From IMG/VR virus record IMGVR_UViG_3300032304_000650, positions 2,751-66,750 of that record: 64,000 nucleotides of DNA. One strand, written 5' to 3'. Made by a program: the position numbers and the translations under genes. Under the pieces are notes generated by a model. The model was not told the DNA's origin, made no database searches, and saw only the letters and a list, made by a program, of their open reading frames with translations. Numbering within the stretch: the first letter of the stretch is position 1; every line of letters begins with the position of its first letter. Below are positions 24,971 to 58,060 of this stretch, in pieces. Source of the DNA: a virus.

Positions 24971-27900
24971 CTATTTATTCTCTGTCTTCAATATCTTCAT
25001 ATATTGTATGCCAGTAGGGTTGTCAGCATTCATGATTCTAAGCTTGTATAATATATCAAAGTACTCTTGAGCTTCCTTCTTATCCATCTCTTTAGCCTTA
25101 TCGTATATATACTTCGCTCTAGTCTTAGGGTCATTTATTCTGTAAGCCTCATAAACCTGTTGGTCATAATTTTGTTTGATATACTTATCAGTAGTTGCCT
25201 TAGCTACATTTGGAGAAAGGTCGTATTTAAGCCCACCAGCCTTATTTGCAGATTCTTTTACAAGTCTTTCATATAAGCTAGGGTAATTCTTATTTACTAT
25301 ATTAAGTGTGCCTTGTATCTCTTTATTCTTAGAGGCTATGTCAGCATTGTATTTGTCATACATTTTTGTATCCTTGTTCATCAATGCAGCATGCGCCTTT
25401 GATTTCAAGAAGTCAATCTCCTCGTAATCCATCATGATTCTAGTCTGGTAGTAGTTAGGAGTTCCAGCAAATAGTCTCTTCTGTAATGATAAACTATTTA
25501 AAATAGCACCTTTCCAGTCTTTTTGAAGACCTTCCTTAAGAGTTACTGGAGCTCCAGTTGCTAATTCTACAGCTGTTTCAAACGCTATCTTAGGAACATA
25601 GATAAGAGGGTTTCTTTCTGGCTGACCATATATCTTCTGACCTGCAGCCTGTAATCTAGCTGGAGAAGTGCCAGTCAAAGAACCTATCTTTTTATAAACT
25701 CCACCAACAGCCTCATCCATAGCGCCTTCATAATCATCTGGAATACCTGCCTCGTCTGTAACTATTTGCTTCTTAGTAAATATATCTAGGTTATTGTAAG
25801 CTAATAAAGCAGCAGCGCCTGGAGGTAGTTTAGCTGGGATTTCTGTTACATCTCCAAAAGGATTTGCGTTAGCTATAGCACTTACGTAGTCTGCCTTTGT
25901 ATATATATTTTTACTACGCTTAGATTCAAATCCCATCATTGCAGCAACCCAGAAGTTCTTAAAGAAAGGAGGCATTGGAACTTTAATAAATTGTCTTTCT
26001 GGAGCATCTCCTCCTACATATATATTTAAGTAGTTTAACTTCTGATATTCAGATAGTGAATCCCATGCAGCTTTCTTTTTCTTTTTTTCTTCATCGTCTT
26101 CCCATGGCATATTCATAATTCCTGCACTATAGGCTGTTAACAAGCCTCCTATAGCAAGCATTTCTCCCATCTGATACATCGCTCTTGCTGGATTTTTCTT
26201 AATCTGATTGATTACAGAAACTCCAGTTTGAACTGTAGAGTTTAGATATATAATAAGTCTAGATGCTGGCTTTACAAGGCTTCCACCTCTAGCAAAATCA
26301 GAACTTCTTCTAGCCTCATGTGCGGCCATTGCATATATTGCATCTAACTCAGCCTTACTTGGCTTTCTTTTATTTTCTTTTTCAAACTTTTCTTCAAATA
26401 CTTTTCTAGCTCTATCAAATATAATAAGTCTAGTAGCCTTCTCTGTTACGTCAGAAACTTTACCAAGACCTGTTTTATCAATCAACTTATCTATAAGCTC
26501 TATTGGCTTTGAGCTATATTGACTAGCTGTATTTATAAGCTTTTCGTATCCAGTACCATCTATTATATCTTTTGATAAAAGTGAAGTCTCTAATTCTCTT
26601 CCAGCATTCATTTCTGTAAATGCTCCCCACTTAGCTGCAAGTCTATACTTATCACCTCTTCCAATTACTTGCTTAATAGAACCTTTCCATCCAACAGTAT
26701 CAACTCCACCTAATGCAATCTGAGCATAAGCTACAGGTACGGAAGGAGAGAATACGTCTGTTGCAACAGCAGCTGTTAACGGGTCAAGCGCAATCATCTG
26801 GAATATACCAAATCCTGGGTTCTTACCAGTAAGTAACTTCTGTGTTAAACTAGCAAATGTTATGTTAGCTAATATGTTTACTTCATCAGACTGACTGTAT
26901 CTAGCATTCCATTGGTCTGCAATTTCATCTGTGGCAAGAACTGCTTTTCTTTGTCCATCTTGATAAAAAAATATGTAAGACATTCCTTCAGGAGCTGTTT
27001 TGTAAACTGGATTACCATCCTTATCTAAAACAACATCACCATCTTCATCTACTACTGGTATAGCTATTTCTACCAAACCATTGTTTGGATTCTGTTCTGC
27101 AAAATTAGCAAGCTGAGTAGCTGCTCTATTGTTTGAAACATTCTTATAGTGGCCCGTAGCAAATACTTGGAATATAGCTTCATAGTCTGTAAGTATATCA
27201 CCATCAGCGCCACCACTCAAAACAGACTTTCTAAGCTGATTTGGATTCTTAGACATTACTCTAGCGTAGTCTGGGTCTTGCTCTTTAAGTATTTTATCAA
27301 TGTATGAAATAGGCACGTAATCGTACTTAATATACATATCATAAGTTTCTTTTGATACTAATCCGTTATCAAGTTTTTCTTTCATGATATTTCTATAAGT
27401 ATCAAACATCTTATCTGCACGCTCGTTTAATTTATCAAATTCAGGATAAGCATTTTCAATAGTCTCTAACTGCTTACTTGCCATACCAGCGTTATATGGA
27501 ATTTTATTTCCATTTGCATCTACAGTAGAACCAACTTGGTAATTCTGTAAATACTCTGTAGTTTCTTTTGTCTGAGGATTATATTTTTTACCTAATACTT
27601 TTCTATCTTGTAAGTATTCTACAGCAGCGTCTATTTTAACTTGAAGCGCTTCTTTCTTAGCATTACTTCTAAGTTTTTTCATCTGAGCACGCATTGCTTG
27701 TAGCTCATTAAATTTATCTTGAACCATATTCTGAACAGCAACAACTCTGCGCATGTTCATGATTTGATTAAGTAAGTCAACCTCGCTGAACTTAATTTTA
27801 CCTTCACCAAATGATAAATCCTTTTTATCAGAAAGTCCTTTATATACAGCGTCTATTACATCTTCTGTAGCTAATGCAGCTTGTGCTCCAAATCCTCTAG

Positions 27901-30900
27901 ATGTAGTCAACATTGCATCAGCTAAAGCTCCAGTTGCGCCAGCATCTGTAAACAGCTTTCTAACTGAAGTTTGATTCTCAATGCCTAAAAGTTTTATATT
28001 CTTATATGCATTTTTTAATTTATTTATAATTCCTGTATTTGATACAGACTCTTTCGCTCTTGTAGTAGCATTCATGTTATATTCAAAAGAAGAGATTGCA
28101 TCAGCTTCTGTTCTAGCGTTTTGTTTAGCTGTTTGTTTAGCAGACTTTCTTGATTTACCAGTATTCCCTACTTGTAATTGCATTCCACTAGGATTCTTTG
28201 TAATAACTACACCAGCTTTACCAAATGAGTTATCTTTTTTTACAGTAACATTATCTCCAAGTAAATCAGAAACATATTCAACCAACTCGTTACCATCAAA
28301 ACCTTTCTGATATACATCTGTAATTCCACCAGCTTCTTTTCTTTTAATTATAGCAGACTTAGGCTCTGGCCCTTTTTCTGCATTCTTAGCTAGATTAATA
28401 TCCCCAGTCCATCCTCTAGAAGAAATTATTGCACTTCCTCCTTCATTTAATTTATTGTATATATCCTTAACGATAGCATCTCTAGTATCTTTTGGGACTA
28501 CATTTAATACATTAAGACTAACAACAGCGTCGTATGTTTTATTTATATCTGAGCTACTTGTAAATGCTGGTTGCTTTTTACCTTTCCATCTATCTATATT
28601 TGGTTCAAATGAATCTACATTAGGAATAACATCTGACATTGCATCAGACCCTAATCCTAATCCAGCTCCATAATCTAATACAGACTTAGCTCCTAAAGAC
28701 TTTGCTATATTAGCAGCTTTAACATAACTACCAGTTGTGGTAGCTACTTGAGTTGTGCCACTTGATTTATCTGCCTTAATTGCATTATCTACCTGAAGCG
28801 CCATTGAAGAACTTAGTTTAACAATAGGCTGAGCACCCATAGCTGACTTAGCTGCTTGTGGCTTAGCTCTTTGGCCTAATGGCGTTTGGTTTGCTTCTTT
28901 AGAAGCTGGAACAAAATCAGGAGCAACTTTCCTTACATCGTAAAACTCTTCAAATATTCCTATAGGTTGACCTGTAACGATGAATGGATAAGACGGATGA
29001 TTCTTAAATCTATCGTCTGTTCTAGTATCTATAATTGGGCTATTCTTGTCTATTTGTATAGCAGCTACAATATCACCATATTCTGCATTTTTAAGCATTG
29101 GCTCATTTGATATTTCAAGCGCTGTTTCTAGTCTTGGTATTCCAAAGTTCTTTTCAGTAAATGCGCTAAACACCTTCTTTGTAAATCCACCTCTTTGGTC
29201 ATAACTAAACTTACCAGCTCCTTCTATTGGCATTAATCCATCTAAATCAGATAAAGATTCAATGCTTGTCTTTTTCCCCTTATCAGCAAGTAGTTGTCTG
29301 AATGTTACTCCAGTTGATACGTTAGTATCCAACTTTGCATCAAGGTATTTAACTAAGTCTTTTTCTGGTACACCTTTATCTACTGCATTGTAAAACTCTC
29401 CCATCATATATCCATAGAAGTCATAGCTCCCTGTAATACCTTCTTCTTTTTGTGACATGATAAGACCAATGCCATCACTTTGTTTAGCTCTATTTAAAAA
29501 TTTCTGAGCAGCAGCTTTTGTTGTAAATGCCCATACTCCAGTACCATCTTGATAAGAGTATGCAACACCACCGTTAAACTCATGAACATATCCACTAGGT
29601 GATTTAACAATAGCTGATATAGCCTTGTCTGCAGCAAATATAAATGCGTTTGCACCATCAAGGTCATTCATTGTTATAAACTTCAAAGACTTCTCGTCAA
29701 AGTTTCTTTCCGCTATCTCTAAGTTTAATCCTTCTTTATTTACCTTTCTACCATTTGGCTGTATGCCACCTGCATTAATCCTTATTGGGTTAGATGTTAA
29801 TCCAGCCTCTGTAGCAGAACCACTTGTCTCGCTAACTATCACCACTTCACGTCCAGTCTGGAACGCTTCTTTAATCTTAGCAGCAACAGCCTTTAAGTCA
29901 TCTATAGATTGTATGTCTGAATTGAATCCAATAATTTCTAAGAATCCTTTAATTACATCAAGGATATTATTCATCACAATAGGCTGGTCTGCTGGTAATT
30001 CAATTTGTCCATCAGCAACTCTTGCTATAAATTCTACAATAGCTTCTGACTTAACTGTATCATCACCATACTTTGCATACCCATCACCAAAAGCAAGTAC
30101 ATCCATAACACCATCAACAGATTCACTTAGGTTTCTAAGCTGGTCATACATTTGACCAACAGCCTCTGAGTTCTGCTGTGCAATCATGTTAATGATAGGA
30201 TGTGCTCCTTCATGAAATATCGTAGAAGTCTTATTCTTTTTGCCAAGCACTTCTCCATTTAGATATATAGTATTATTGACTCTATCAAATGCCCCATTAG
30301 AACCCCTATAATCTTTTTCTTTATCCTTACTTACGCTATATCCATTATCAATTTCTTGCTGTATTAGTATGTCCCCGTATTGCTGAGCAGATGGGACTAC
30401 TACTACCTTAACACCTGGATTGATAGACTTAAGAGCAGAAACTACATTTGACGCATAGTTTATAATTCTATCTCCAAATGTTTTAGGATTTTCTACTGTA
30501 GACGTGTCTGCATTTTGTGCATCTACTACTACTATTTGTCCTTGCGTTTTGCTGCCGAAATTGCGATAGCGATTATCTGGTTCATTGGTCGCTTGTTCTT
30601 GCTGTCCTTCAATTCCCTCACGTTGGATGATATTGCCTTCTGGAGTGATTTCTTGCTGCTGCTGGCTGCTTTCTTGAGTGGCATATTGTTTATTTTTAAT
30701 GTTTAATCCTGTTTTATCATCAACCTCTTCGGATAATGGGTCTTCCGATACTTGTGCTCTAGCTATACGACCATTAACATCTTGTAACTCTGCATTTAAC
30801 GCAGCAAGTGCTGGTAGGTCTGTTTCTGGAGTATTAGCTATTTTTTGTTGTATACCTTCAGCTTTTATAGTTAATCCAGCAACAGTAGGAACAGCATCTT

Positions 30901-32422
30901 GATTAGATACCATCACCTTGCCTTTTGCTTCTCTAAATTTATCTATGTCTTCAACAGACTTCTTAGCAGTACCTTCTGGAACTAAACCCGATTGCTCCAT
31001 GGCAACCATGTTATTATATATAGTCTGATTATCTAGATTTGATATAGCGTTATAAGCATATGACTTTACATACTTAGGAACAGCTATAGCACCACCGACA
31101 GCAGCAAATCCTAGCTGAGTTAAAAACTCTGCCTTAAACTGCTCTTCAGCTGATTCATCTGAACCACCTCTAATCTTTTCCATGGAATATGCAACAGCAC
31201 CATCTAAACTGCCAGATAAGGCTAATTCCTTTCCATTTGCGGCAGCATCTTTTAAGAATGCCTTAGTTGCTTGTCCAAAAGATTTAAGCTCTCTAGCGGG
31301 CTTTATTTGAGAGAATGTCTTTAATACCTTACTACCTAAGTATTGACTAACAACACCCTCTGCAGCTCCAGTCATTAAAGACACCTTGCTATTCCAGAAG
31401 TTATTAGCAACCTCATATGCATCATCATCGGATAAACCGTTTTGCTTTGCTTTTTGGAATGCTTGATTCTTGCTATCAAATTGCTGTCTTTTAGCTTGAA
31501 CCGCACCGACAACTGCTGGAGATAAAAACTGTCCAAGTCCTGGGATTGTACTAACAGCTATACCAGTAGTAATATCTGGAACTACTCCACCCATCATACC
31601 AGTAGTTTCAGCTCCAAAACCTCTTCTTTCTGTTTGTATTGTACCAAGGTCTTTATCTCTTGGCATTTCTGTATATCTTACCTTATTAGGTTTCCCAGCT
31701 TCTCCTATAGTAGTTAATTGAACTCGTTTATTGCCTTTCATAAAAGCTATCTGCTCTTCTCTATCCATCACATCAAATCCTTCTACTTCCTTATTTGTAT
31801 TAATTGTAGCATTATAACCATCTAAAAAACTAGCTATCTTGCCATCTATTACATTCTTAAGTACTGGAAATCCTTTATCATCTTTGCCTATTCTTAATTC
31901 TCCAGCTTTAAATCTAGATAAAAAATCTTCTCTCTTCTGTGTAATAAATATATCTCTCATTGGCATATCAGCTGATAACTGATTAGCATATATTTTAGCC
32001 TGATTATCTACAGCTATAAGAGCATTATCATATGTATTTATGTTTGACTTAGACTTTTGTAATCCTAGGTCTGCAGGCTTTTCTGTAACTTTTGCATCTT
32101 TCTTAACCACTGGAACTGGCTGTCTTTCAGAAACCTGAGCAGTTGTTGGCATTGCATTTTTAGCAACATCTTCCATTGTAAAAGAAGTCTTAGGAGCTGG
32201 TTGCTTAGCTGCTGCTTTTTGAGCAGGAAGTTGTCCTGCCATGGCTGCTCTAAATACTGGCTTTAAAGAAGTTGCACCCTTTCTAAGCGTATTCATGTAG
32301 TTAGCTTTTAACAGCTCTCCAACACTAGAATACCCTGTTCTTCTATCTTTTGGATTAGTAGGGCCTTGAGAATTATCTTCGCTATTGAAATTAACGGTTT
32401 CGTCTGTAGTATTTTCAGCCAT
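24971..32422 (-). CDS. giant internal virion/ejection protein, polyvalent (zincin peptidase, class I MTase, LPD38-like)
   Basis: 2483 aa; HEGAH at about 30200-30214; VLDYGAGLG...YDAVVSLNVLNVV at about 28200-28760; C-terminal ARRSSDFARGG...FIKVP...SPARL region. Confidence 0.7.
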   Translation of the reverse strand: MAENTTDETVNFNSEDNSQGPTNPKDRRTGYSSVGELLKANYMNTLRKGATSLKPVFRAAMAGQLPAQKAAAKQPAPKTSFTMEDVAKNAMPTTAQVSERQPVPVVKKDAKVTEKPADLGLQKSKSNINTYDNALIAVDNQAKIYANQLSADMPMRDIFITQKREDFLSRFKAGELRIGKDDKGFPVLKNVIDGKIASFLDGYNATINTNKEVEGFDVMDREEQIAFMKGNKRVQLTTIGEAGKPNKVRYTEMPRDKDLGTIQTERRGFGAETTGMMGGVVPDITTGIAVSTIPGLGQFLSPAVVGAVQAKRQQFDSKNQAFQKAKQNGLSDDDAYEVANNFWNSKVSLMTGAAEGVVSQYLGSKVLKTFSQIKPARELKSFGQATKAFLKDAAANGKELALSGSLDGAVAYSMEKIRGGSDESAEEQFKAEFLTQLGFAAVGGAIAVPKYVKSYAYNAISNLDNQTIYNNMVAMEQSGLVPEGTAKKSVEDIDKFREAKGKVMVSNQDAVPTVAGLTIKAEGIQQKIANTPETDLPALAALNAELQDVNGRIARAQVSEDPLSEEVDDKTGLNIKNKQYATQESSQQQQEITPEGNIIQREGIEGQQEQATNEPDNRYRNFGSKTQGQIVVVDAQNADTSTVENPKTFGDRIINYASNVVSALKSINPGVKVVVVPSAQQYGDILIQQEIDNGYSVSKDKEKDYRGSNGAFDRVNNTIYLNGEVLGKKNKTSTIFHEGAHPIINMIAQQNSEAVGQMYDQLRNLSESVDGVMDVLAFGDGYAKYGDDTVKSEAIVEFIARVADGQIELPADQPIVMNNILDVIKGFLEIIGFNSDIQSIDDLKAVAAKIKEAFQTGREVVIVSETSGSATEAGLTSNPIRINAGGIQPNGRKVNKEGLNLEIAERNFDEKSLKFITMNDLDGANAFIFAADKAISAIVKSPSGYVHEFNGGVAYSYQDGTGVWAFTTKAAAQKFLNRAKQSDGIGLIMSQKEEGITGSYDFYGYMMGEFYNAVDKGVPEKDLVKYLDAKLDTNVSTGVTFRQLLADKGKKTSIESLSDLDGLMPIEGAGKFSYDQRGGFTKKVFSAFTEKNFGIPRLETALEISNEPMLKNAEYGDIVAAIQIDKNSPIIDTRTDDRFKNHPSYPFIVTGQPIGIFEEFYDVRKVAPDFVPASKEANQTPLGQRAKPQAAKSAMGAQPIVKLSSSMALQVDNAIKADKSSGTTQVATTTGSYVKAANIAKSLGAKSVLDYGAGLGLGSDAMSDVIPNVDSFEPNIDRWKGKKQPAFTSSSDINKTYDAVVSLNVLNVVPKDTRDAIVKDIYNKLNEGGSAIISSRGWTGDINLAKNAEKGPEPKSAIIKRKEAGGITDVYQKGFDGNELVEYVSDLLGDNVTVKKDNSFGKAGVVITKNPSGMQLQVGNTGKSRKSAKQTAKQNARTEADAISSFEYNMNATTRAKESVSNTGIINKLKNAYKNIKLLGIENQTSVRKLFTDAGATGALADAMLTTSRGFGAQAALATEDVIDAVYKGLSDKKDLSFGEGKIKFSEVDLLNQIMNMRRVVAVQNMVQDKFNELQAMRAQMKKLRSNAKKEALQVKIDAAVEYLQDRKVLGKKYNPQTKETTEYLQNYQVGSTVDANGNKIPYNAGMASKQLETIENAYPEFDKLNERADKMFDTYRNIMKEKLDNGLVSKETYDMYIKYDYVPISYIDKILKEQDPDYARVMSKNPNQLRKSVLSGGADGDILTDYEAIFQVFATGHYKNVSNNRAATQLANFAEQNPNNGLVEIAIPVVDEDGDVVLDKDGNPVYKTAPEGMSYIFFYQDGQRKAVLATDEIADQWNARYSQSDEVNILANITFASLTQKLLTGKNPGFGIFQMIALDPLTAAVATDVFSPSVPVAYAQIALGGVDTVGWKGSIKQVIGRGDKYRLAAKWGAFTEMNAGRELETSLLSKDIIDGTGYEKLINTASQYSSKPIELIDKLIDKTGLGKVSDVTEKATRLIIFDRARKVFEEKFEKENKRKPSKAELDAIYAMAAHEARRSSDFARGGSLVKPASRLIIYLNSTVQTGVSVINQIKKNPARAMYQMGEMLAIGGLLTAYSAGIMNMPWEDDEEKKKKKAAWDSLSEYQKLNYLNIYVGGDAPERQFIKVPMPPFFKNFWVAAMMGFESKRSKNIYTKADYVSAIANANPFGDVTEIPAKLPPGAAALLAYNNLDIFTKKQIVTDEAGIPDDYEGAMDEAVGGVYKKIGSLTGTSPARLQAAGQKIYGQPERNPLIYVPKIAFETAVELATGAPVTLKEGLQKDWKGAILNSLSLQKRLFAGTPNYYQTRIMMDYEEIDFLKSKAHAALMNKDTKMYDKYNADIASKNKEIQGTLNIVNKNYPSLYERLVKESANKAGGLKYDLSPNVAKATTDKYIKQNYDQQVYEAYRINDPKTRAKYIYDKAKEMDKKEAQEYFDILYKLRIMNADNPTGIQYMKILKTENK

Positions 32423-55187: not shown

Positions 55188-55474
55188 ATATTTGCTTTGC
55201 GGTTGTTAAGTACCCCAAATATACGTCATCTTGAAACTAAAAAATCAATTTGACGTATTTTTTTTACAAAAAATTGAAAAACACGTATTGATTCTCAGTT
55301 AGTTACAAGGTTTCCTTCTTATATATATTATACAGATGTATTCCATACTCTGTATCCTGTTTTACAAACAGGTTTATACGTAGATATGGCACTCTATAAA
55401 GTAAAGCTGTTACTTTACCGTATCGGCTGTTTAGTCAAGCGTTAACTTGACGTGCGGCTACCCGTCAGAAAGTA

Positions 55475-55518
55475 TGAGGTATGTGACCATGCAAATAGTG
55501 AGGTATGTAACCATGCAA
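55475..55518. repeat. tandem 20-bp direct repeat (24-bp period)
   Basis: TGAGGTATGTGACCATGCAA (55475-55494) and TGAGGTATGTAACCATGCAA (55499-55518). Confidence 0.85.
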
Positions 55519-56097
55519 GGGAACTATATATGCATAGTGGGTATAACGCCTAGGTGAAATTCAATTTCCTAGCCCGTGTACCCCATAGAAATGATTGAAA
55601 ATCAGCAAGTTATATCGTAAAAACTAACTAGATAGAAGTGATAACGCATAGCTATTATACGTATAGATAGGATGCTATAATATAAATAGTTGTCTATGCA
55701 ACTAACTTAGATTCCCTCCTCATATCAATGTTCAAACATCTAATTCATTCACCTATCACGCGCGCACATACGCGCTATATACTAACTAGGATTTTGTACC
55801 TAAATTCTCCTAGGGAACTCAGATTTTATGGGTCTAAATGTTAAAATTCCTTTAACACATTTCCTGCCATTTTAAGGCGATTCTAGCCTATCAAATCGTT
55901 TTTGAGGCAATCACCTTAGCCACCCTGAGAAAGTGGAAATTTGGGGAAATTAACAGGTCTTTAACATATACACTTTAACTTTTTCTTAACGTATGTTTTC
56001 GTATCATACGCGCATACGCGCACCCTATATCCTTATAGGGAGGCCATAAAAAAGCTTTAACAAAGTTTTAACTACCCCATCCATTGCGGTATCAAAA

Positions 56098-56105
56098 TAT
56101 CTTTG
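56098..56105 (+). promoter_or_regulatory. early promoter -7 element
   Basis: TATCTTTG(CA) at the head of the plus-strand arm; no clear -33 TTTG at canonical spacing. Confidence 0.65.
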
Positions 56106-56109
56106 CAGT

Positions 56110-56442
56110 TTTACAATGTCAACGGGGGACACCCCAACGACGCAGTTCTTTTCAAGGTGGGTCACTCTAGGTAATCATTCCTAGGTAAGCACGACCCGAT
56201 ATCGCGAAAGGTTAGACAATCTGACTAAGTAGCACGAAAGGATATCCGCTAGGCCAACAAGCACACCACAACAACAAACACCATCACCGCGCTGAGGGTA
56301 TAAAAAGAGAGCGGGTAAGTAGCTACCACGGACATAGGTAGCGATGACCTTACAGCAACGGAATCTGATTCTAGATTAATAGAATAGACGAGCTGAGATT
56401 GTCTCAGTTGCAGTCGGTTTACTAGGACGATGGCCCAATGTA
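56110..56442 (+). ncRNA. candidate structured ncRNA of unknown family
   Basis: ORF-free, GC-enriched, at least 8 stems visible by eye and GAA/AGUA loop-E-like internal loops; bounded by a promoter and a ribozyme cut site. Confidence 0.6.
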
Positions 56443-56491
56443 CGCGGTTAAAAAAGCACCGCGCTGACGAGTCGCAGAACGACGAAACATT
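56437..56491 (+). ncRNA. hammerhead ribozyme, type III
   Basis: AAUGUA^CGCGGU-loop-ACCGCG CUGACGA GUCG-cagaa-CGAC GAAA CAUU: complete core, three stems, GUA cleavage triplet (cut after 56442). Confidence 0.92.
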
Positions 56492-56513
56492 AACAAAAAA
56501 AACTATATGTATT

Positions 56514-56747
56514 ATGGAAAGGAATTACAGCGTATCAATTAACACTACAAGCCATTTTGAACTAGAGTACAAGCAAAGAGCTGTAGCTTTTGAGTTCAAG
56601 ACTTTTGATGAAGCCTATGAAAAGTACAAGGAATTAGTCGCAGATGAATCAGCGCACGTATCTACCTTGAACAGCGTGAGGTCTAGCGTGACAATCACCA
56701 TGGCGCACGAGGACAGAATCCAATACAGAGTAAACATATACAACTAA
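56514..56747 (+). CDS. early hypothetical protein
   Basis: ATG at 56514 after an A-rich leader (MERNYSV...). Confidence 0.7.
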   Translation: MERNYSVSINTTSHFELEYKQRAVAFEFKTFDEAYEKYKELVADESAHVSTLNSVRSSVTITMAHEDRIQYRVNIYN

Positions 56748-56758
56748 AATTTAATACC

Positions 56759-57001
56759 ATGGAACAATTACTAAGCAACAAGTATGAGCAACTATGCGAC
56801 ACGCTGTCAATAGTTGAGGAATTCGTAGGCAGTCTTGCAAGCGAACGCACCCAAATGGATATAGCTGTTAAACTATGTCCATACGTAGACAATTTAAAAA
56901 AGCTAGTGAGAGACAATCCTAGTATTGTACGTGAGACCATTGCGCACGACTACATAGGGTTAAGAGACGAAGACGAGGATTTTTTACCAAGACTAGCATA
57001 A
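56759..57001 (+). CDS. early hypothetical protein
   Basis: 80-aa ORF ending immediately before the second ribozyme. Confidence 0.7.
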   Translation: MEQLLSNKYEQLCDTLSIVEEFVGSLASERTQMDIAVKLCPYVDNLKKLVRDNPSIVRETIAHDYIGLRDEDEDFLPRLA

Positions 57002-57002
57002 A

Positions 57003-57058
57003 GGTTAACTGACGAGCTGTTTATCAGCGAAATGCCCGCCCCCACGGGTATCTTAACC
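57003..57058 (+). ncRNA. hammerhead ribozyme, type I
   Basis: GGUUAA CUGACGA GCUG-uuuau-CAGC GAAA UGCCCG-loop-CGGGUA UC^ UUAACC: complete core, AUC triplet (cut after 57052). Confidence 0.92.
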
Positions 57059-57074
57059 AAAAAAAATAAATGTT

Positions 57075-57998
57075 ATGAGAAATCAAACAGCAACAAAAGT
57101 ATTAGACCAAGAGTCTAGATTCAGCGCAAAAACTACTGATTCAGCAGAGCGCAAAATTGACACAATCTTAGAGAACAGCAGACAAGACAACGTCTTTGTT
57201 GAATCCTCAATTGTGAGTTTATCTGAAATCACAGGTATGGCCACACGTAAAGGATTAGAGCAGGCTGTTATCTGCGAGAACGAAATCGTTAACGTGGTAT
57301 CATCTAGCTATGGTCACTTGGATAATCGTAAATTCTACTACGAGGCAGAGTCTAAGTTGATTGACGCTGACATCTACTACAAACAGCGCTCAGTGAACAA
57401 AGATAACCGCTCATTCGCTGTAGACTATGTCCTAGCTGACGATAGATACAAGATTGAGATTAAAGGTGAACAAGACATCTTACGTCCTATGTTACGATTC
57501 GTTAATAGCTACGATGGTAGCTGTAAGACTAGCGGTTCAATCGGATTTTGGCGCAAGGTATGTGACAATGGTTTACATGTAGCTAATTTCAACATCGGGT
57601 TTAGTGTTAAGCACCGCGGTAATATTGCTGAGGTAGTTATGCCTAAGCTAGACGAAATTGTAGGTCAGTTCATGGACAACGAATTCTTTACACTTAAGCG
57701 TAAGTTTGAGGTGCTTGCAGAGCGTCCCGTTACTAATGTAGAAGACTACGTAAAAGCTACAGCTAAGACCCTAGGGTTATTCAAATACGAGGCATCAGAT
57801 AAGAATCCCGAGCCTAGTGCAAACGCACGTTTTGTTTTTGACGTAATCAACCGCGAGTCTAAGCTATTGAATACACGTCCTAACCAATGGATTGTATACA
57901 ACGCATTCAACGAGCTGTTACACGGCAAGTTAAAGAAGACGTTTGACCAACAAAAGAATCTTGACGAGCAATTGTTTGAGACAATCTATGCGGGTTAA
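57075..57998 (+). CDS. DUF932 family protein
   Basis: VVS..Y....N, NSYDGS, RKVC.NG, KH.G, W..YNA.NE. Confidence 0.85.
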   Translation: MRNQTATKVLDQESRFSAKTTDSAERKIDTILENSRQDNVFVESSIVSLSEITGMATRKGLEQAVICENEIVNVVSSSYGHLDNRKFYYEAESKLIDADIYYKQRSVNKDNRSFAVDYVLADDRYKIEIKGEQDILRPMLRFVNSYDGSCKTSGSIGFWRKVCDNGLHVANFNIGFSVKHRGNIAEVVMPKLDEIVGQFMDNEFFTLKRKFEVLAERPVTNVEDYVKATAKTLGLFKYEASDKNPEPSANARFVFDVINRESKLLNTRPNQWIVYNAFNELLHGKLKKTFDQQKNLDEQLFETIYAG

Positions 57999-58010
57999 GA
58001 TATCACCACG

Positions 58011-58037
58011 GGAGGGGCGCAATGCTCCTCCTTTTTT
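58011..58037 (+). terminator. intrinsic terminator
   Basis: GGAGGGGC/GCTCCTCC stem plus T6. Confidence 0.8.
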
Positions 58038-58060
58038 ATATTATCTAAAATAATAATCTT

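Follow-up and report, generated by a model that had tools for sequence, protein, structure and literature searches.

The DNA analyzed here, hereafter the window, is a 64,000-nt stretch comprising bases 2751-66750 of the IMG/VR virus record IMGVR_UViG_3300032304_000650, which is 66,750 bp long and has direct terminal repeats. Large genes occupy a minus-strand block from ~6.5 to 55.2 kb, and from 56.5 kb onward the plus strand carries small open reading frames (ORFs) as far as the end of the window. Where this plus-strand block begins, preceded by a 1.3-kb stretch with no ORF of more than 38 amino acids (aa) on either strand, lies a compact unit comprising a promoter-like box, a structured leader RNA, a type III hammerhead, two short ORFs, a type I hammerhead, a gene for a DUF932 protein and a terminator-like hairpin (Table 1). 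An earlier note on this DNA had proposed that the first transcript of the unit cuts itself into pieces. The sequence comparisons described below make it probable that a rightward transcript would be self-cut twice, yielding a conserved leader RNA and two messenger RNAs (mRNAs).

Table 1. Features of the hammerhead unit and of related loci. Positions refer to the window unless preceded by a locus identifier.
Feature	Position	Strand	Remarks
Candidate Bacteroidota-type -7 promoter box, TATCTTTG	56098-56105	+	TAnnTTTG
Conserved structured leader RNA, ~330 nt	56106-56442	+	5' end approximate; 3' end set by the predicted type III cut
Type III hammerhead	56437-56491	+	predicted cut after A56442 (GUA)
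ORF1, 77 aa	56514-56747	+	no family; swappable cassette
ORF2, 80 aa	56759-57001	+	no family; stop 1 nt before type I
Type I hammerhead	57003-57058	+	predicted cut after C57052 (AUC)
DUF932 protein, 307 aa	57075-57998	+	Pfam PF06067, E value 9.7e-16; phrog_21518, E value 1.4e-105
Terminator-like hairpin, 10 pairs, 6 of them G-C, then TTTTTATATT	58010-58042	+	consensus scan
Type I hammerhead with CUGAGGAU or CUGAAGAU (extra U between A9 and stem II)	L004:3921-3984, L005:3919-3982, L006:3879-3942, L008:2123-2188, L009:3294-3359		5' of DUF932
Leader tail without local ribozyme	L006:1848-1863; same site in L007, L008, L027, L028, L168, L171		candidate second cut between CAAACAUA and UUAACC

The type III element has a 5-bp stem III (AAUGU/ACAUU) with GUA at the cleavage site, a 6-bp stem I (CGCGGU/ACCGCG), the core CUGACGA and a 4-bp stem II (GUCG/CGAC) with the loop CAGAA, followed by GAA and A15.1. 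The type I element combines a 6-bp stem I (GGUUAA/UUAACC), the core CUGACGA, a 4-bp stem II (GCUG/CAGC) followed by GAA, and a 7-bp stem III with one G-U pair (AUGCCCG/CGGGUAU); its residue 17 is C. Both elements agree with the hammerhead consensus at every core position (C3 U4 G5 A6 N7 G8 A9, G10.1-C11.1, G12 A13 A14, A15.1-U16.1 and H17, the last being A in type III, C in type I and G in neither). Both also have the three-helix topology, with descriptor stems I/II/III of 6/4/5 bp in type III and 6/4/7 bp in type I. The minimum free energy (MFE) structure of the type I element is the hammerhead fold (-16.6 kcal/mol, z -2.49).

Such elements are rare by chance. A descriptor that demands CUGANGA and GAAA cores, three stems, U16.1 and H17 matched exactly these two sites on both strands of the window. 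In 300 dinucleotide shuffles, the descriptor gave nine matches when the stem limits were relaxed, but no match whose stems equalled the observed ones in length. Covariance models built from relatives matched the window only at the two sites, at 68.5 bits (type III) and 68 bits (type I), scores that arise by construction because the window sequences were in both model seeds. The same two sites were the sole matches of both models in the whole 66,750-bp record. The coordinates and topologies given for two same-strand hammerheads in the earlier note were thereby confirmed. Its fragment sizes were also right: the segment 56443-57052 spans 610 nt, and the leader from 57053 up to the DUF932 start codon (ATG at 57075) has 22 nt. 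Its description of both elements as intergenic holds if ORF1 starts at the ATG at 56514; a mechanically called ORF from the ATG at 56430 overlaps the type III element.

Relatives were collected by a DUF932 search, which yielded 17 loci, and with two DNA patterns, which yielded 33 and 95 further stretches. The covariance models of both hammerhead types were run on 100 of the 141 loci collected by then. Of the 141 loci, 110 contained hammerheads according to the descriptor (67 distinct sequences of type III and 64 of type I), and the models returned 70 type III and 107 type I matches. When 26 type III homologues were aligned and the alignment checked by hand, 95% of its cells were paired as compared with 58% in shuffled alignments, 14 of the 18 pairs had changed on both sides, and the covariation score of 0.847 (0.165 shuffled) was reached in none of 500 shuffles. 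The type I alignment, which is biased in favor of the structure by having been fitted to the model, comprised 107 matches (101 distinct). Here, 98.7% of the cells were paired versus 73% after shuffling, 15 of 17 pairs had changed on both sides, and the covariation score was 0.591, whereas shuffles gave 0.135 and slid controls did not exceed 0.081. Synteny, suggested by the earlier note as a check, was likewise kept: type I lies directly 5' of DUF932 in the window and in seven of eight close relatives (L002 and L004-L009). In L004-L009, the type I element carries an extra U after A9, which the descriptor overlooked and the model found. Together, these sequence data confirmed both elements as genuine hammerhead ribozymes, which are predicted to self-cleave.

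Several observations weigh against this assignment or against self-cleavage of the transcript. At the Rfam gathering thresholds (RF00008/RF00163), which are the curators' cut-offs and not biological features, nothing was found in the window. RF00008 matched the type III element at 42.7 bits (E value 1.8e-7) and did not reach its gathering score of 48.5. No Rfam model, Hammerhead_1 included, found the type I element, where there was only a mis-registered 13.7-bit RF00008 match. The Rfam search that the earlier note had recommended was thus borne out for one hammerhead, below the gathering score, and failed for the other. The MFE structure of the isolated 55-nt type III element has stems I and II without stem III (z -0.83), and this A/U-rich, 5-bp stem III folds only in an 81-nt context. 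In natural hammerheads, rapid cleavage at cellular Mg2+ concentrations usually depends on a tertiary contact of stem I with stem II, and none was identified here. A candidate pseudoknot of the type I loop II with either flank was not significant in a permutation test, the observed value having been reached in 77 of 500 and 153 of 500 permutations, and was not supported. Among the relatives, L003 has a plain hairpin 5' of DUF932 and no type I hammerhead, and nine more distant DUF932 loci (L010-L018) gave no match to either hammerhead model. The type I element of L163 (about 980-1040) may be impaired, as it has GAAU and a flipped, non-canonical 15.1-16.1 pair. Seven relatives, described below, carry the leader without a local ribozyme behind it. 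Moreover, the search patterns fix parts of the motifs and the loci are partly related; due to this ascertainment and kinship, counts of arrays among them are not independent. Finally, an RNA library contained one 231-nt freshwater contig inside the leader (56153-56360, depth 2.4), which cannot show transcription, abundance or ends; gaps in the coverage of the RNA run X20 carry no information.

The earlier note had also claimed a structured RNA upstream of the first hammerhead, and this RNA proved to be real, conserved and covarying in relatives. The leader (56106-56436) aligned with L002, L005, L150, L151, L153, L157, L161, L162, L163 and L165, of which those from L150 onward were added by a metagenome scan. 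An nhmmer profile added the divergent L006, L007, L008, L027, L028, L168 and L171, for a total of 23 loci, 16 of them distinct. The RNAalifold consensus of 10 sequences (alignment A8) had 57 pairs; 99.3% of the cells were paired, and both sides had changed in 20 pairs, as compared with no more than three in slid controls. In 12 more diverse sequences (alignment A9), 27 of 46 pairs had changed on both sides. In this second alignment, several unpaired motifs are invariant, for example UGAGGGUAUAnAAAGA, and the L007 leader has two extra hairpin insertions. The 5' and 3' ends of the leader pair with each other to form helix 1, which ends 5 nt before stem III of the hammerhead. Folded as a single sequence, the leader was mildly better than shuffles (z -1.69; 3 of 100 shuffles were as good). 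As these same alignments, of only about four lineages, also yielded the structure, the support for the fold is good, not conclusive.

No ORF of more than 28 aa is present on the plus strand of the leader. A search of Rfam 15 with 56106-56436 returned no family at an E value of 10 or less beyond chance-level eukaryotic matches (E values of 4-5), and the divergent homologue from L006 matched no Rfam family either. The leader had no match among 50,697 cultured-phage records in a distant blastn search with 55200-58000. An exact 24-nt leader pattern recovered only two relatives, both already known, and a 22-base pattern had no exact match in the genome-contig collection. From its sequence, the leader appears to be an undescribed structured RNA without an Rfam family; it was not found in the literature searched. 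A permuted hammerhead core inside the leader was considered and dropped, as GCGAAA and CUGAGGG misfit G8/A9 or stem II. Separately, a second cluster of 35 long non-coding leaders with patchy similarity lies 5' of other type III elements (L020, L042, L092, L120 and 31 further loci); it might represent another leader RNA family, judging by sequence.

From this layout, we infer the following course of events. A transcript starting near 56106 would run rightward, and the ~330-nt leader would be made first. The first cut, by the type III element after A56442, would free the leader, to whose 3' end no more than 6 nt of ribozyme would remain attached. The type III body would be left at the 5' end of the ORF1-ORF2 RNA as a structured element, 22 nt upstream of the start codon of ORF1 (ATG at 56514). 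In the second cut, after C57052, the type I body would remain as a 3' structure on the 610-nt ORF1-ORF2 RNA, and the DUF932 mRNA would begin with an A-rich, unstructured leader of 22 nt and probably end at the hairpin at 58010-58042. According to hammerhead chemistry, the new ends would be 5'-OH and 2',3'-cyclic phosphate. The suggestion in the earlier note that 5'-OH ends may alter decay or defence sensing gained no support. The purpose of this processing may be to free the leader RNA and to uncouple the stability and translation of the cistrons.

Among relatives, the leader is followed by one of three configurations. In the window and seven other distinct sequences, it is followed by a type III hammerhead. 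In L163, by contrast, a match to twister-P1 (RF03160) occupies the place of the type III element (L163:417-475), ~25 nt before the first ATG, and is identical in L165. The match aligns over its full length with 41.4 bits and an E value of 1.4e-7, is below the gathering score of 67.2, and represents one distinct sequence only (L163 = L165). A putative twister-P1 in place of the type III element behind the same leader argues that cleavage at this point is selected; in general, unrelated self-cleaving classes in equivalent positions indicate that cleavage itself is needed. As a candidate natural replacement of a hammerhead by a twister at an orthologous site, the L163 sequence thus argues for cleavage behind the leader as a selected trait. 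A one-for-one swap of this kind was not found in the literature searched and is an addition to what has been described.

In the third configuration, the seven divergent relatives L006, L007, L008, L027, L028, L168 and L171 have no local ribozyme after the leader. Their leader tail, CA(A/C)ACAU-A-UUAACC, could pair with the two arms (5 + 6 bp) of the type I element that follows 185-304 nt downstream, and the one A/C difference in the tail covaries with U/G in the type I arm. These tails may be part of a discontinuous hammerhead or merely a recombination remnant. In a discontinuous device, the core of the next type I element, 185-304 nt further on, would cut the tail CAMACAU-A-UUAACC, so that a single core would act at two cleavage sites, one on either side of ORF1. 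A broad scan for orphan type I substrate sites proved too noisy, giving 320 matches that were mostly chance, and only the seven leader-linked cases were then examined.

These configurations bear on what the cleavage is for. One possibility is that release of the leader is the main point: the leader would be an autonomous, trans-acting RNA, the ribozyme a device for maturing its 3' end, and processing of the mRNAs secondary. The conservation and covariation of the leader and the pairing of its 5' and 3' ends are consistent with such a role. So is the position of the cuts, as the type III element and twister-P1, whose cleavage position we take to be near its 5' end, would both cut near their own 5' ends, and the leader would keep 5-6 nt of ribozyme. 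The complementarity between the leader tail of the seven ribozyme-less relatives and the arms of the next type I element, with its covarying A/C-U/G position, points the same way. However, the leader occurs only directly before the first ORF of the operon, as a 5' untranslated region (UTR) does, and no target, partner or function is on record for it. The RNA-library contig cannot show abundance or ends, and the tail complementarity involves one covarying position in two clades and could be a recombination remnant of the 3' half of a type I element. On balance, we consider a trans-acting role as the main point possible, if somewhat doubtful. A wider proposal, that the leader represents a novel class of structured RNA in phages, that its separation from the first mRNA is selected and achieved by three interchangeable devices (type III, twister-P1 and discontinuous hammerhead), and that the freed RNA acts in trans early in infection, is put forward tentatively and is rather unlikely to hold as a whole.

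The same seven relatives, in which the leader is still joined to the mRNA without a local ribozyme, also fit a cis-acting 5' UTR element, that is, a sensor or a determinant of antitermination or translation control. Such an element may gate the ribozyme and so make cleavage conditional. The leader adjoins the hammerhead, the end of helix 1 being 5 nt from stem III, and contains the invariant unpaired motifs mentioned above, such as UGAGGGUAUAnAAAGA. Regulated cleavage is raised as a possibility for phage hammerheads in the available part of PMC3088659. On the other hand, no alternative pairing between leader and hammerhead is known, no search for such pairing having been made. Moreover, the hammerhead can apparently be swapped for an unrelated twister while the leader is unchanged, which argues against specific allosteric coupling. 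We therefore regard a role confined to the 5' UTR as improbable.

Self-cleavage of the transcript into separate mRNAs is further suggested by how the ribozymes are arranged among genes. At least two hammerheads were present in 48 of the 100 modelled loci, always on one strand, and the largest array, that of the close relative L009, has six (III-I-I-I-I-I). In all 24 mixed arrays, every type III element lies 5' of every type I element. The 24 arrays form 10 clusters by shared sequence, corresponding to a random-order probability of ~10^-4.4, subject to deeper common descent and to ascertainment by pattern. An ORF starts 7-25 nt downstream of 61 of 66 distinct type III elements (median 13) and 48 of 64 distinct type I elements (median 17). 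Between the upstream ORF and a type I element, the median gap measures -1 nt; in many cases, the TAA of GGUUAAC or the TGA of CUGA serves as the stop codon. Type III elements follow a non-coding gap with a median length of 200 nt, and the ORF closest to the element is encoded on the opposite strand in 24 of 61 cases.

This order can be read in terms of the RNA products. As the type III body would stay on the downstream RNA and the type I body on the upstream RNA, every coding fragment would be closed at its 3' end by a compact structure, and downstream mRNAs would have short, A-rich 5' leaders without structure. The rule that type III precedes type I was not found in the literature searched and appears, in the loci compared here, to be an addition; the figures and supplements of PMC3088659 may bear on type order.

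Exchange of the genes between ribozymes raises a different explanation. In an 11,002-nt DNA contig of run X2, 269 unrelated letters stand in place of 56501-56757, the segment containing ORF1. Judged from the aligned DNA, this replacement exactly between the type III element and the start of ORF2 is a cassette exchange at ribozyme boundaries. Hammerhead copies could accordingly be, in the main, linkers or relics of recombination through which gene cassettes are shuffled, with cleavage incidental or lost. The variation of array size from two to six among relatives would fit such linkers, as would the nearly invariant type I stem I, GGUUAA/UUAACC, in which the commonest pair is present in 89-100 of 101 distinct sequences at the six positions, partly as an effect of the search pattern. 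By contrast, more than 100 copies combine compensatory change in all three stems with a preserved core, which indicates selection on the RNA fold and not on DNA identity, and homology-driven linkers do not explain the apparent twister substitution. We consider the linker explanation very unlikely.

The fate of the middle fragment was considered as well. RtcB joins ends of the kind that hammerheads produce, 5'-OH and 2',3'-cyclic phosphate. Both ribozyme bodies would stay on the excised 610-nt ORF1-ORF2 RNA, which a host RtcB-type ligase could conceivably circularize to give a stable circular mRNA. Against this, spliced or circular products were sought in the published systems and none was detected, according to the part of PMC3088659 consulted, and no back-joined contig was present in four runs, contigs being poor evidence either way. 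A circular mRNA is thus highly improbable.

The predicted cleavage of the transcript into a leader RNA and two mRNAs has parallels in several known systems. In T7, a polycistronic early transcript is cut by RNase III at intercistronic structures into defined mRNAs with structured ends. That processing is protein-dependent and leaves 5'-phosphate and 3'-OH ends, whereas an RNA enzyme would act here, with 5'-OH and 2',3'-cyclic phosphate expected. The type I hammerheads of eukaryotic RNA viruses resemble those described here in having a long helix III, a position a few nt before a start codon and no canonical loop-loop contact that could be seen. Those viruses use cap-independent translation; in the present bacterial DNA phage, an effect on translation would follow by inference only.

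The closest precedent is that of Perreault et al. 2011 (PMC3088659), the available text of which describes clustered hammerheads that flank genes in prophages and proposes that they process transcripts into operon- or gene-length mRNAs. In the same text, three tandem arrangements were cleaved in 2-kb transcripts in vitro, and the Agrobacterium set was active in vivo. The prophage clusters described there (Clostridium scindens, Azorhizobium caulinodans and the Agrobacterium tumefaciens triple around ardA) resemble the phage studied here in having mixed types on the same strand and variable flanked genes. Unlike those prophages, the present phage is metagenomic, from freshwater and apparently lytic; it also has a structured leader before the first ribozyme and, in the present sample, a strict type III-then-type I order. 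Given the mechanism proposed in 2011, the hammerhead pair is a further example of a known phenomenon and, taken alone, an ordinary one; the interest of the locus lies mainly in the leader RNA and the positional rules. The self-processing transcript of the earlier note is partly supported, by the cores, their placement on one strand, covariation, synteny, fragment sizes and the apparent twister swap, but its novelty was overrated, the hypothesis having already been published and partly tested, as the accessible part of PMC3088659 makes clear.

Two further published cases are relevant. HHphage, the hammerhead of haloviruses HF1/HF2, likewise lies 13 nt before a start codon, at the first gene of an early polycistronic transcript, and a 5' end has been mapped within 3 nt of its cleavage site (PMC3088659, part consulted). 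It differs in belonging to an archaeal virus, in its variant, high-Mg core and in being a single ribozyme; no leader RNA family is described for it in that part of the paper. Twister and hammerhead ribozymes share gene contexts in bacteria and phages, for a purpose that the consulted part of a review calls undetermined (PMC6765202). The link published there is statistical and rests on nearby genes, whereas the present case is an apparent one-for-one swap at an orthologous site.

The locus family may serve as a compact test bed for the purpose of phage hammerheads and twisters. It offers a conserved RNA whose cleavage device is apparently swapped between unrelated ribozymes, and tight spacing of the ribozymes to start and stop codons. 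It also shows a polarity in the present sample, as ribozymes whose body stays downstream come first and those whose body stays upstream lie between genes. Predictions follow on the protection of RNA ends, the translation of mRNAs lacking a Shine-Dalgarno sequence and the release of a non-coding RNA.

As to the transcription signals of the unit, the candidate promoter box matches TAnnTTTG, which we take to be the Bacteroidota-type -7 consensus. In alignment A1, the box is conserved in the window and in L002 and L004, with an almost conserved copy in L003, and the divergent L006 and L008 have TTTG-N19-21-TAnnTTTG at the same place. TAnnTTTG occurs three times on the plus strand between 54 and 60 kb, the 56098 box included. 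A scan for sigma-70-type promoters was at chance (11 sites versus 8.9 expected). The conserved box and the gene layout are what point to possible early timing and plus-strand transcription of the unit. The hairpin behind DUF932, which the earlier note had overlooked, is probably the 3' end of the unit, as far as its sequence and position indicate; the consensus scan gave three terminator-like sites in the region versus 2.2 expected.

ORF1 and ORF2 had no match in Pfam, PHROG or NCBIfam. DNA of the ORF2 region is kept in L163 (78.8% over 56741-57100). The DUF932 protein scored 35.6 bits against TIGR03299, below the cut-off of 110.7, and none of the DUF932 literature among the matches listed concerned function. 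Cultured relatives of the DUF932 gene were found only in Flavobacterium phages (11 records, over a 90-nt stretch), in the same blastn search against 50,697 phage records. Parts of the stretch are contained in 20 sequencing-run rows, mostly freshwater metagenomes and all kept as contigs; the runs compared gave no positions of molecule starts or stops. The sequence probably derives from a freshwater phage of ~66.7 kb with a Bacteroidota host. Such a host fits the TAnnTTTG box and the A/T-rich leaders without Shine-Dalgarno sequences, and is in line with the kinship of the DUF932 gene to those of Flavobacterium phages.

In the 17 relatives, the only Rfam match at gathering thresholds was a c4-2 antisense RNA on the minus strand of L011 (1344-1422; 49.4 bits versus a gathering score of 41), a 39,290-bp phage contig with a DUF932 gene. 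A weak match to the Rfam family freshwater-2 (28.1 bits versus a gathering score of 49.9, E value 0.039) lies at L163:994-1074, where it overlaps the variant type I element and the DUF932 leader.

Elsewhere in the window, the long minus-strand block of large genes includes an ORF of 2483 aa (24971-32422). The divergent, 1.3-kb non-coding region upstream of the promoter box contains, within 55188-56100, a tandem 24-nt repeat (55475-55518, 95% identical), an 18-nt inverted repeat (55217-55262) and several copies of a CTTTAAC-containing motif (55841-55862, 55950-55969 and 56047-56067). These repeats may be operator or origin-like elements. Just 5' of the promoter box is an alternating purine-pyrimidine tract of CG, CA and TG (55990-56030), which is much longer in L002-L005 and is extended by 35-38 nt in contigs of runs X2 and X4.

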